Below, piece by piece: positions 10,051 to 12,779 of a DNA stretch of 64,000 nt. The stretch's first letter is position 1, and the number at the start of each line of letters is the position of its first letter. Position numbers and translations under genes: made by a program. This DNA comes from Candidatus Dormiibacterota bacterium. GTDB taxonomy: Bacteria > Chloroflexota > Dormibacteria > Aeolococcales > Aeolococcaceae. The DNA lies in the NCBI GenBank assembly GCA_963709585.1, contig CAVPXI010000007.1, positions 256,001 through 320,000 on the forward strand. The letters run 5' to 3'. The notes under the pieces are model-generated. The model ran no database searches. It was not told the DNA's origin and saw nothing but the letters and a program-made list of their open reading frames with translations.

Positions 10051-10586
10051 GTGAATAAGTCGTGATCCGTACGCCGATCTTCCTCAGGTGCCGTGGTTCA
10101 GCCTGTCGAGCGATGACATCAAGGACGGCAAGCAGTTGCCGTCGGCGCAGCGAAGCGGGATCTTTGGTGCCGGCGGAGAGGACGTGTCGCCCGCCCTCTC
10201 GTGGAGCGGCTTCCCCGAGGGCACGAAGAGCTTTGCTGTGACTGTGTACGACCCCGACGCGCCGACGGCAAGCGGGTTCTGGCACTGGGCCGTCGTCGAC
10301 CTTCCCAGCAGCGTCACCAGTCTGCCGGCCGGCGCCGGTGACCAGGCCGGTCAGCGCCTGCCATCGGGAGCCTTCCATCTTCGCAACGACGGAGGCCTCG
10401 CCGGTTACCTCGGCGCGGCGCCGCCGCCGGGGCACGGCCCTCACCAGTACCACTTCGTGGTGCACGCGGTCGACGTCCCGTCGCTCGGCATCGGCCCCGA
10501 ACTCCACGCCCGCGTTTCTCGGCTTCAATCTGTTCACGCACACGCTGGGCCGCGCGCGCATCGTCTCCTGGTACGAGAACAGCTAG
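10051..10586 (+). pseudogene. YbhB/YbcL (PEBP) family protein, apparently with two +1 frameshifts
   Basis: [35 protein letters not shown]. The C-terminus [17 protein letters not shown] is in another frame from ~10500. GGAGG + GTG at 10051 is one base out of frame. Confidence 0.8.
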
Positions 10587-10602
10587 ATCCCATAAGTTGT
10601 TG

Positions 10603-11805
10603 TCAAGCTAATCCGGCGCTGCCATGCGCCGGATCGAAGTCCTTGTCGCCGCGCCACACGCCCCAGACGATGGCGAGCGCCTTGCTCATGCAGTGACCAA
10701 GGGAGTTCATCGCTGACTTGCCCGCGGCCCGCTTGCGAGCGTAGTGGGCGCGGATGATCGGGTTGTGTTGCACGCCGACCACCGCCATCCGGTACGCCGC
10801 CGCACGCAGATACGAGTTGCCGGTCTTGGCCATGGTCCAGCTCGTCTCGGGGTTCGCACCCTTCTTCCCTGAACTCTGCTCCTTGGGATGCACGCCTGCG
10901 TAGGCGAGCAACTGGTCGACATCGCTGAAGCGCCAGATGTCGCCGATCTCGGCCATGAGTGTGGCCGCGGTGGACGGCCCGACACCGGGAATCGAGAGCA
11001 GCCGCTGCGACACCTCGCCGTCGAGCAGGGAGGCGACCCGGGTGTCCGCGCTGGCGATCTGCTGGTCGAGCAGGTCGTGCTGCGCAATCAGGAGGCGCAT
11101 CTCGAACCCGACCTGCTGCGCGAGTTCCGGCGCAGCCACCGAGGTCTGAGCCAGCTGCTTGAGCTGGCCGGCCTTGAGCGGTCCGATCGCACGGCCACCA
11201 CCGCCCGGACGCTTGAGCCGAGCCAGGCGGTCCTGGTGCATGCGCGCCACGGCCGCGGCGGTCGGCGCGTGGCGGAGCACCGCCAGGGCGCTCACGCAGG
11301 TCGGGTCGTCCCAGACCTCGCGCAGCTCAGGAAAGCCGATGTCCACCAACCGCTGGATGCGCTGGCAGACCTGGGCCTGCTCACGCACCAAACGCATCGC
11401 GAACCGCGCCGCCTCCTTGAGCTCGGCCCCCACCAGGGGCTCGCTGATCCGCGGCTGGTCGTGCGTTCCCAACGCCGCCAGTGTGCGCGCGTCGGCCGGG
11501 TCGCTCTTGCTCCGCTGCAGCCGGCTCTTGGCGAAGTACTTGGCCTGCAACGGGTTCACCACCGCCACCGGATACCCCTGGCGACGCAGGTGGCTGGCCA
11601 GGTTGAACCAGTAGTGGCCGCTCGATTCCATCACCACCACCTCGATCGGCGCTTCCTGCTTCGTCATCCACGCGTCCAGTTCGCCGAAGCCCTTGCGCTT
11701 GGTGGTGATGGTGAGCACCTTCCGATCCGCCTCGCGCTCACCCTGGCGACACACCGCCGCCGCGCACTTGTATGCCCCCACGTCGATCCCCACCGCCAGG
11801 CTCAT
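10603..11805 (-). CDS. IS110-family DEDD recombinase/transposase
   Basis: RuvC-like GIDVG / VVMESSG / KSDPADA; C-terminal IPGVG, AEIGD and QSSG serine motif; AGGAGG SD before ATG 11805. Confidence 0.95.
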
Positions 11806-11837
11806 ACGCACCTCCTGTGTCGGGTTGCGACCCCAGG

Positions 11838-12016
11838 GGTCCTCGCCTTGCTTCGTCGCCGCGTGGGCTGATGCTCCATCACCGGTCACCGCCGTCGGAT
11901 CCCAATCACCGCTCGAAGACGAAGCACGAGGGCCGGTCACTAGCTCCATCGGTCCCGTCGCCGGATAGCTATGCGCCGGTCTCCCCGTCGAGGTCAGATT
12001 CCCCGCGATTCTGACC
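11838..12016 (-). ncRNA. putative IS110 bridge RNA
   Basis: Three predicted stem-loops: GGTCAGA/TCTGACC; CCGG..TAGCT/AGCTA..CCGG; CCTCG-TGCTTCGTC/GACGAAGCA-CGAGG. Loop segments match the element ends and the flank. Confidence 0.7.
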
Positions 12017-12035
12017 CTGCCAGGAGATATATCAG

Positions 12036-12779
12036 CTATCCGCTGAGCAGGAACTGTTCCGCTTCTCGATACTCGGGATTCTCGGCGACGTGGGTGCCGT
12101 GGGCGATGACCGGATGGGTCCGAAATGCGTCGGCGACGACGTCTGCGCTCAATGCTCTGGTGTCGTAGGGACACACGACTGACATTGGCGTCGAGGCGAA
12201 CGCAAGGTTGAACAACAACTCGTCAGCGAGTCCACGCGATGATCTCCGCGTCGGACCGACCTGCCCAGATGGGCTCCCCCAGGATGCGGACCCAAGATGC
12301 CCCGGCATCGATCTCCTGCTTCACCCATGCGCGATAGCGATCGAGGGCGGCGTTCGGCGAGGTCAGCCAGCCCACCGAGTCCGCGAAGACGACATGACCA
12401 GCGTCCGCCCCGAGTGAGACTCGCAGCAGCTCGATGTGCGCCGCGGACGTCACCGCAAGCGCAGGTTCGGAACGTTCGATTCCTTGGGCAAGGAACGGGA
12501 CGGCCATGGCCAGGAACTCGTCCTCCGACCTGTACGCGAGCACAAGGTGCTCAAGCAGCGGCGGCGAGATCGGCCGGCCCCGATCAGATAGTCGACGCTG
12601 ACGGACAACGCGGTCGCGAGGGCGGTGAGGCTGCTGAGCCGTACGTCCTGGCGCCTGCCCGATTCGATCTGCGCAATGGCCGTCCAGCTCATGCCCGCGT
12701 GGTATGCGAGCGCTTCGCGGCTCCATCCCAGGCGCACCCGAGACGCTCGCAGGGTTTCCCCGATTCGAGACGAAGTCAC
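12036..12779 (-). pseudogene. XRE HTH + MEDS sensory domain regulator, two frameshifts
   Basis: HTH (SREALAYHAGMSWTAIAQIESGRR) in one frame, MEDS (HLVLAYRSEDEF..VPFL..VRILGEPIW) in a second, FNLAFA..VVCPYD in a third. Confidence 0.75.

Follow-up and report, generated by a model that had tools for sequence, protein, structure and literature searches.

A likely canonical IS110-group insertion sequence with a left-end bridge RNA, lodged between two stop codons in a Candidatus Dormiibacterota genome

The window (the whole 64,000-nt stretch of contig CAVPXI010000007.1 that was analyzed) carries on its minus strand an IS110-family element with a body of 1,447 bp (10587..12033; 1,449 bp counting one CT), the ends of which were set by empty sites and family alignments. 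Its recombinase gene (10603..11805, minus strand) encodes a 400-aa protein that matches the Pfam models DEDD_Tnp_IS110 (PF01548; E = 3.9e-26, 92.1 bits) and Transposase_20 (PF02371; E = 3e-23, 82.4 bits), with D8, E60, D102, D105, and S312-G313 aligning to the catalytic D11, E60, D102, D105, and S241-G242 of IS621. The noncoding left end extends over 228 nt up to the ATG, and 16 nt separate the stop codon from the right end. Because this long noncoding end lies upstream and not downstream of the gene, the element belongs to the IS110 group rather than to the IS1111 group. By eye, the termini GATATATC... and ...TATGGGAT have no inverted repeats. We are confident that this is a canonical insertion sequence of the IS110 group, consisting of a DEDD/serine bridge recombinase and a bridge RNA encoded at the left end. 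The initial annotation had proposed an intact IS110 element whose bispecific bridge RNA lies in that end, and both the Pfam matches and the loop-flank covariation described below bear this out. The insertion point falls precisely between two stop codons, those of a pair of convergent genes, as had also been read from the sequence. Pfam searches identified a MEDS domain on one side and a PBP match for the PEBP-family gene on the other; the frame at 12039-12725 (TGA translated as X) is mostly out of frame and served for the MEDS match only.

Three near-identical copies of the element occur in the genome, with copies 1 and 2 identical and copy 3 showing 2 nucleotide differences. All three sites are unoccupied in a relative of the same genus (G048), where they take the form LT-CT-AGCT... 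(LT, left target), e.g., ...GGATAG-CT-AGCTGTTC. The empty sites read ...CAGTGGATAG-CT-AGCTGTTCTCG for copy 1, ...CCGAGAG-CT-AGCTCGGCTC for copy 2, and ...CCTATAG-CT-GGCTCAGCTC for copy 3; each has exactly one CT and no other length change, with a 1-nt substitution in one of them. Target-site duplication is thus absent, with a single CT in the three empty sites and a CT on each side when they are occupied. The left CT copy (12034..12035, minus strand) stands ahead of a conserved GATATA wherever the left end of a locus is recognizable, the base before CT being variable, and the right copy (10585..10586, minus strand) was placed from family right ends and empty sites. Family alignments also end the element at CT-GATATA and TATGGGNN-CT, and of 24 related genome loci, 21 have a left end that begins with GATATA after CT and a right end that closes with ...TATGGGNN followed by CT. 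As judged from these sequence comparisons, the element ends and crosses over at the usual CT dinucleotide, which is canonical for IS621-type elements, and not at TA. The junction predicted for the circle is ...TATGGGAT-CT-GATATATC. TA, the 4-nt AGCT, AG, and GC were also considered as cores, but neither the empty sites nor those relatives in which CT is all that the flanks have in common are compatible with them. The relative G008, which holds 80 bp between two half-sites at the copy-1 locus, was rejected as a clean empty site.

These boundaries differ from those of the initial annotation, in which the element was bounded by a duplicated TAGCTG and had a TA-centered core, a circle reading ...GGGATC-TA-GCTGATAT, and an empty site GCGGA-TAGCTG-TTC. 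TAGCTG does occur at each end of the copy in the window (12038-12033 and 10585-10580), and the donor-loop motifs UGGGAUC and AUCAGC would then flank a TA, but this reading is almost certainly wrong. Neither copy 2 nor copy 3 has TAGCTG at both of its ends, and they show other element boundaries: AGCT alone is common to all three copies, with A in place of T before it on the left of copy 2 and C in place of G after it on the right of copies 2 and 3. The three G048 empty sites, which contain AGCTAGCT or AGCTGGCT, are each 4 nt longer than GCGGA-TAGCTG-TTC would predict, and both the boundary and the circle junction drawn from TAGCTG are off by 4 nt. Moreover, where relatives have different flanks, CT is all that recurs at the two ends, covariation of the right target guide (see below) makes sense only if the AGCT on the right side of CT is target DNA, and the spacing of the junction promoter would be 22 nt. 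Since the empty sites read LT-CT-AGCT..., the TAGCTG "repeat" is half of a host palindrome, AGCTAGCT. It is also improbable that the copies are inactive relics, or artefacts generated by collapse or duplication of a single copy during assembly. The assembly probably does contain errors, as the two genes beside the element show 1-nt indels (at 10500, at 12223, and after 12571) against two relatives, although these may instead mark pseudogenes, and transposition was not observed; however, the three copies have different flank pairs, each colinear with the unoccupied site of the relative, and in all three the open reading frame is open with every catalytic residue present. Divergence among the copies (0 to 2 nt), set against that of their flanks from G048 (3 to 7%), points to recent movement.

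The left end (241 nt) adopts a minimum free energy (MFE) fold of −107.8 kcal/mol (z = −2.76; none of 200 shuffles as stable), consisting of a 5′ hairpin and two stem-loops, the architecture that had been suggested for this region. The 5′ hairpin (GGUCAGA/UCUGACC; 11992..12016, minus strand) is taken from the MFE fold and lies in a poorly aligned region, with 54% and 90% of cells paired for its two parts; no covariation is claimed for it because the MAFFT alignment is wrong there in one subfamily. The target-binding stem-loop (11933..11979, minus strand) has an outer CCGG/CCGG and an inner CGG/CCG stem around an internal loop, with the guides on its unpaired sides. Both stems are invariant in 37 to 38 of 38 sequences, so that covariation speaks neither for nor against their pairing. 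The donor-binding stem-loop (11841..11931, minus strand), with outer stems CCUCG/CGAGG and GCUUCGUC/GACGAAGC and an inner CGG/CCG, shows compensatory double changes in 4 of the 8 pairs of the 8-bp stem; overall, 93.7% of its cells are paired versus 26 to 44% with the partners slid. These counts were taken on a hand-drawn structure in place of the RNAalifold consensus of the full left end, which was rejected as partly implausible (long-range pairs, and the right donor guide paired to GAU). Since AGCU is self-complementary, portions of the guides are base-paired to one another in the MFE folds. A covariance model built on the two loops recovered exactly the three copies in its own genome (160.8 bits each) and a single weak match (37 bits) in 150 other genomes of the phylum; the clade of the element is patchy among the genomes searched. 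Rfam searches at E ≤ 1 across 10300-12300 returned only a chance snoRNA match inside the open reading frame and no curated bridge-RNA family.

[quoted passage not shown] The right target guide (RTG), GAGCU plus the core complement AG (11946-11940, i.e., 11940..11946 on the minus strand), predicts the right target AGCTC; it matches positions +1..+5 at.90/.90/.74/.82/.66 in cognate and.90/.66/.24/.26/.40 in noncognate pairs, again with 0 of 20,000 permutations as high. The initial annotation had placed the other three guide motifs correctly but missed the RTG. It had also credited the loop sequence GCGCATAGCT, which is indeed found at 11976-11967, with a 9/10 match to the target. That figure is too generous to the guide: among relatives, covariation with the flank is confined to the 4 bases ahead of CT, and positions −7..−5 match no better than in noncognate pairs. 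Several relatives fit poorly, on the right flank L014 and L068 (0/6) and L090 and L099 (2/6), and on the left flank L017, L019, L021, L022, L074, and L093 (2/7) and L020 and L086 (1/7); in L020 and L024 the guide-flank match is offset by one base.

In the second loop, the left donor guide (LDG) is UGGGAU plus C, the first core base only (11898..11904, minus strand), running in the sense of the TGGGAT-C at the right-end terminus and corresponding to the TGGGATC reported at 11904-11898. In 56 of 59 loci, its GGGNN is identical to that of the right end, NN taking three states (AT, TT, and AC). The right donor guide (RDG), AUCAG (11868..11872, minus strand), is the reverse complement of CT plus GAT. 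Both the RDG and the left-end GATATA are invariant in the family; their pairing is therefore consistent with the model, and covariation is not possible. The hexamer ATCAGC (11872-11867) had been attributed as a whole to the donor arm, but its final C (11867..11867, minus strand) is a handshake base for the target, a concept that comes from work on IS621 (PMC11208158), and, once strands are exchanged, would pair with target −1 (G). In a set of 41 distinct RNAs, the target −1/handshake pair is G/C in 37, C/G in 2 (lineages L066/67 and L079), and A/C in 1, with 1 more unread. In the present element, U at the handshake position of the target loop and T at donor −1 would form no pair, and a second handshake position, two bases past AUCAG, displays by eye no consistent pairing with target −2. 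Covariation with flanks and right end agrees with the earlier proposal, which assigned the target to the first loop and the donor to the second. The guides of the first loop would thus specify the target ATAG-CT-AGCTC, and the second loop the joined ends ...TGGGAT-CT-GAT....

A different explanation would be that the recombinase protein itself reads the CTAG palindrome, with the left-end RNA serving only as a leader or regulatory element and the loop-flank matches reflecting descent. Family members show almost no variation at CT and the A(G/A) behind it, so the protein could read part of the site, and relatives are nonindependent samples. Nonetheless, positions −4..−1 and +2..+5 change jointly in loop and flank across 29 to 31 distinct guides, with noncognate pairs at background; within one clade, a single guide is associated with several different flanks that share the guided bases only; and the handshake C becomes G exactly where target −1 G becomes C, in two lineages. 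We consequently regard recognition by the protein alone as very improbable and favor RNA guidance.

Of the two host half-sites of the window copy, the left one, ATAG (12036..12039, minus strand), matches the AUAG of the LTG and is present in the G048 empty site; within it, at 12038-12036, is the TAG with which the MEDS-domain gene stops. The right half-site, AGCTG (10580..10584, minus strand), is likewise present in the G048 empty site, matches the RTG-predicted AGCTC at 4 of 5 positions, and, together with the core, contains the TAG stop of the PEBP-family gene (10584-10586, plus strand). For copies 1, 2, and 3, the guides match 4/4, 3/4, and 4/4 bases on the left and 4/5, 5/5, and 5/5 on the right, so that the occupied sites have 1, 1, and 0 mismatches to the predicted 11-bp target ATAG-CT-AGCTC. 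The 3.52-Mb assembly contains five sites with at most one mismatch to this 11-mer, three of them occupied by the copies and two intact. Only three intact copies of the 8-bp AGCTAGCT are left in the genome. CTAG is depleted about 9-fold in this host genome (67% GC) and is mostly located at gene ends; as the target contains CTAG, insertions fall on gene-end TAG stop codons, which stay intact. Across the clade, the core CT together with the RTG bases U and C/U, which hardly vary, confines the target to CTAG (or CTAA). We tentatively suggest, without considering it the likelier case, that the clade may use stop codons as a safe harbor, part of the guide being frozen for harmless insertion and the remaining bases being free to vary. 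Both neighbors would then retain exact stop codons, the bottom-strand gene keeping its CTA and the top-strand TAG becoming TGA by means of the GA of the conserved left end, and the variable guide bases would pick the gene end. The accessible parts of the literature searched yielded no description of stop-codon or CTAG targeting by IS110 elements.

At the right end, an outward-facing, −35-like TTGACA (10601..10606, minus strand) overlaps the recombinase stop codon, and CTTGAC is conserved in right ends. In the geometry of a CT-core junction, it is followed by 18 nt and then by TATATC with TG ahead (TG-n-TATATC); this −10 hexamer is without the consensus final T and would fail promoter-scan criteria. 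A promoter scan detected no promoter-like site in the integrated element. By analogy with IS621 (PMC11208160, PMC11208158), the element would excise as a circle whose right-end/left-end junction sets TTGACA 18 nt from TG-n-TATATC, and the resulting promoter would drive the bridge RNA. Its two loops would be bound by two recombinase dimers, the serine would cut the top strands after CT for strand exchange, and the Holliday junction would be resolved on the bottom strands. In the metatranscriptome run X17, all three matching contigs cover 11836-12037 only, with 0 to 1 differences and a depth of 2 to 4; one extends into the host flank, and DNA carry-over is possible. Runs X16, X18, and X11 contained mostly relatives of 90 to 95% likeness, and the contigs of the four runs included no circle-junction joints. 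All runs were available as assembled contigs, so RNA ends and levels are not readable from them.

The closest known parallel is IS621 of Escherichia coli (PDB 8wt6 and related entries; PMC11208160, PMC11208158), which likewise has a two-domain recombinase with DEDD and Ser-Gly at aligned positions, a CT core at both ends with no target duplication, and an RNA encoded at the left end upstream of the gene. In both elements the target loop comes first and the donor loop second, with 5′ sides in top-strand sense and 3′ sides as reverse complement; the LTG spans both core bases and the LDG the first one only; the handshake base follows the RDG; and a −35 box in the right end faces the left end. Similarity to the IS621 protein is nevertheless remote (E = 4e-24, ~30% identity by eye in aligned stretches), and the recombinase is longer (400 versus 326 aa). 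The target guides also differ, being shorter on the left (4+2 versus 7+2) and longer on the right (5+2 versus 2+2); the target, unlike that of IS621, is a CTAG palindrome at gene ends, and the RNA matches no Rfam family. Among solved structures, the best match is the ISCro4 transposase (PDB 9t56; E = 2.7e-26), remote but with both domains aligned and compared by protein only. A divergent recombinase with a predicted 4+2+5 target code may thereby be added to the candidate programmable recombinases; it shares at most 34% identity with the best plasmid-borne relatives, and its similarity to IS621 is, as noted, remote. The element, from an uncultured soil lineage, illustrates the bridge-RNA code cleanly in nature, all four guides and one handshake base being readable, with empty sites to check them against. 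It leaves the known mechanism unchanged, and gene-end CTAG targeting adds a small point on how the host is spared from harm. ISPpu9 and ISPpu10, IS110-family elements of Pseudomonas putida, reportedly also insert into short intergenic palindromes and not into genes; theirs is the REP (repeated extragenic palindrome), whereas the site used here is the 8-bp AGCTAGCT across stop codons.

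The element is a real, intact IS110-group insertion sequence with an IS621-type bridge RNA and was probably active recently; elements of this kind are already known, and the present one adds a further member. Its 400-aa recombinase ORF (11805..10603, minus strand) matched both Pfam domains of IS110-family recombinases (DEDD_Tnp_IS110, 3.9e-26; Transposase_20, 3e-23), and its closest solved structures were ISCro4 (E = 2.7e-26) and IS621 (E = 4.2e-24). Alignment to IS621 (chain numbering offset by 2) placed D8, E60, D102, D105, and S312-G313 opposite D11, E60, D102, D105, S241, and G242, described as catalytic in the IS621 structure paper (PMC11208158).

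The source assembly (3.52 Mb, 24 contigs, 88.8% complete) contains three copies of the element. The window copy (copy 1) and copy 2 show no difference over 1447 bp, and copy 3 has two base differences, resulting in R199C and E235A. In element sense, the copies read ...GGAT-AGCT-[GATAT...GGGATCT]-AGCT-GTTC (copy 1), ...CGAA-AGCT-[...]-AGCT-CGGC (copy 2), and ...TTAT-AGCT-[...]-AGCT-CAGC (copy 3). TAGCTG, the boundary proposed by the initial annotation, is thus not common to all three. Comparison with 24 related genome-bin loci (62-95% protein identity; labelled mostly Dormibacterota, some Chloroflexia) placed the left limit of conservation at CT followed by GATATA and the right limit at ...CTTGAC-N7-TATGGGNN followed by CT, the base preceding the left CT being G, C, T, or A. 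Because conservation in relatives stops at CT on both sides, the element ends at G12033 and T10587, with the core copies at 12035-12034 (left) and 10586-10585 (right) on the minus strand; the AGCT that follows the right core copy belongs to the host.

All three loci are unoccupied in a genome of the same genus that lacks the element (G048; flanks 93-97% identical, genome 85% complete). The empty sites are ...CTCAGTGGATAG-CT-AGCTGTTCTCGTACC (copy-1 locus), ...CCTCCGAGAG-CT-AGCTCGGCTCAGG (copy-2 locus), and ...GGCCTATAG-CT-GGCTCAGCTCGACG (copy-3 locus, with one substitution at +1). Each of the three consists of the left flank, a single CT, and the right flank, indicating that insertion duplicates no target sequence, and each is 4 nt longer than the empty site initially predicted. 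TAGCTG appears twice in the window because the insertion splits the host palindrome AGCTAGCT. Empty sites, copies, and relatives' ends therefore define a CT core; the TA core, boundaries, and circle junction of the initial annotation were wrong, and its view of a divergent TA-centred element falls with them.

Several related loci departed from this arrangement. At the copy-1 locus of another relative (G008:C1, about 708906-708985; L029), 80 bp separate GGATAGC from CTAGCTG, at the position that is empty in G048 and occupied by the IS in the source genome; the same segment is present in contigs of sequencing run X11. A related element has three copies in a single genome bin; in two of them (L009, L011), approximately the terminal 35 bp of the right end, running GCCGGACCTGCTTGAC... 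to ...TATGGGAT, are tandemly duplicated before the CT core. A metagenome contig (L065) encodes a recombinase 100% identical to that of the window, with the right flank of copy 2 and a different left flank (...CCACTAG-CT); possible explanations are a fourth insertion site, recombination between copies, and a chimeric assembly through the repeat. Partial sequences comprise a lone 33-nt left-end fragment, CT-GATATATCTCCTGG..., without a recombinase gene nearby (L064; G046:C19:106192-106224) and a copy 86% identical that is limited to the final 519 bp of the element (L063; G015:C91).

Once the boundaries were corrected, the guides matched the IS621 layout base for base. As described in the IS621 reports (PMC11208160; PMC11208158), target reading falls to the first internal loop and donor reading to the second, the 3' side of the loops is the reverse complement of the core together with the right arm, and both core bases lie within the left target guide (LTG), the left donor guide (LDG) taking in the first core base only. 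Here, the LTG (AUAG+CU, 11972-11967) reads the left target and core, the right target guide (RTG; GAGCU+AG, 11946-11940) the core and right target, the LDG (UGGGAU+C, 11904-11898) the right-end terminus and first core base, and the right donor guide (RDG; AUCAG, 11872-11868) the core and left-end start. The initial reading of the loops was largely right: all of its motif coordinates were correct and it found the LTG, LDG, and RDG, but it missed the RTG and assigned the C at 11867 to the donor.

To the related loci we added 67 from metagenomes (94 in all) and used anchored patterns to extract guides and flanks; a target loop could be recognised in 68. These yielded 64 pairs on the left (55 unique guide-site pairs, 29 distinct guides) and 58 on the right (50 unique, 31 distinct guides), and such covariation counts overstate the number of evolutionary events because related sequences are not independent. 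Identity at -7 to -1 before the core was.40,.31,.16,.51,.76,.87, and.89 for cognate versus.43,.29,.25,.21,.28,.31, and.83 for non-cognate combinations; at +1 to +8 after it, the values were.90,.90,.74,.82,.66,.16,.22, and.18 versus.90,.66,.24,.26,.40,.23,.21, and.16. None of 20000 permutations with one site per guide reached the observed match totals on either side. The loops thus track the flanks, and the target code is 4 + CT + 5. Within the 10-mer target match initially proposed, the four bases before CT covary with the flank, whereas the initial GCG falls in positions without guidance. Misfits occurred on the right flank, where L014 and L068 matched 0/6 bases, and on the left, where several loci matched only 1-2/7. 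In two copies from a Chloroflexia relative (L020, L024), the right flank is one base off the guide prediction (C+AGCCC, not AGCCC), and in L020 an additional T precedes the left CT; these may be imprecise or half-matched insertions.

On the donor side, the LDG equals the right-end terminus in 56/59 loci (GGGAT, 37; GGGTT, 14; GGGAC, 5). The base after AUCAG corresponds to the donor-loop handshake position, which reads non-cognate DNA, described for IS621 in PMC11208158. This base was C with G at -1 of the LTG in 37 of 41 distinct RNAs, and G in two lineages (L066/67, L079) with C at -1 of both LTG and flank; one further RNA was mismatched and another unread.

The left end, with 228 non-coding nt before the recombinase ATG, is predicted to fold into a 5' hairpin plus two stem-loops (-107.8 kcal/mol, z = -2.76; 0/200 shuffles as stable). 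When 38 distinct left ends were scored against a manually drawn structure of 33 pairs, 93.7% of cells were paired, versus 26-44% with partners slid by 1-3 columns. The 8-bp donor-loop stem, also returned by RNAalifold, showed double compensatory changes in 4/8 pairs; two short target-loop stems are invariant, and covariation therefore speaks neither for nor against them. A covariance model, a check proposed in the initial annotation, was built from the two loops (147 positions, 26 pairs); it recovered exactly the three copies in the source genome (160.8 bits) and gave one weak match among 150 further genomes sampled from the phylum. Another IS110-family element of the source assembly (G000), distinct from this one, with three copies and one partial (PF01548, 132 bits) outside the window at C7:93519-93989, C14:313414-313884, C13:147186-147656, and C13:130955-131260, should carry a different bridge RNA, since the model had no match to it.

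The integrated element yielded no sigma-70-like site. Joining the ends at the CT core would place the conserved TTGACA (10606-10601) 18 nt from TATATC, itself preceded by TG (22 nt in the junction initially proposed); the -10 hexamer lacks the last T of the consensus, and this junction promoter is thus putative. Four RNA-labelled runs, all as contigs, were compared with the region, and no circle junctions were seen in these contigs. In run X17, the part of the region covered by all three matching contigs is limited to 11836-12037 (0-1 differences), and one contig extends into flanking sequence resembling that of copy 2. This pattern hints weakly at higher transcription of the left end than of the recombinase gene.

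No intact perfect copy of the predicted 11-mer ATAG-CT-AGCTC is left in the 3.52-Mb assembly, and only two intact one-mismatch sites exist; with 1, 1, and 0 mismatches at copies 1 to 3, the element thus occupies 3 of the 5 best sites. Copy 1 lies between the TAG stops of a MEDS-domain gene (12038-12036, minus) and a PEBP-family gene (10584-10586, plus), both part of the target palindrome and kept after insertion. The gene upstream of copy 2 ended in a TAG (core T + AG) that is now TGA (core T plus the first two left-end bases). Of 39 unique sites in relatives that are flanked on each side by 260 nt or more, 29 had an ORF of at least 80 codons ending within 6 nt of the core, compared with 8.6% of random positions and 51% of all CTAG sites in the source genome, where 1219 CTAG are present and base composition predicts 10737. 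Most of this gene-end bias arises because the clade's target has a fixed CTAG. Compared with G048 and G008, one additional base is present in the window at 10500 (A) and at 12223 (T), and a G is absent after 12571, each difference frameshifting a flanking gene (PEBP-family, 10088-10586, plus; or HTH/MEDS, 12036-12779, minus); these indels are either assembly errors or marks of young pseudogenes.
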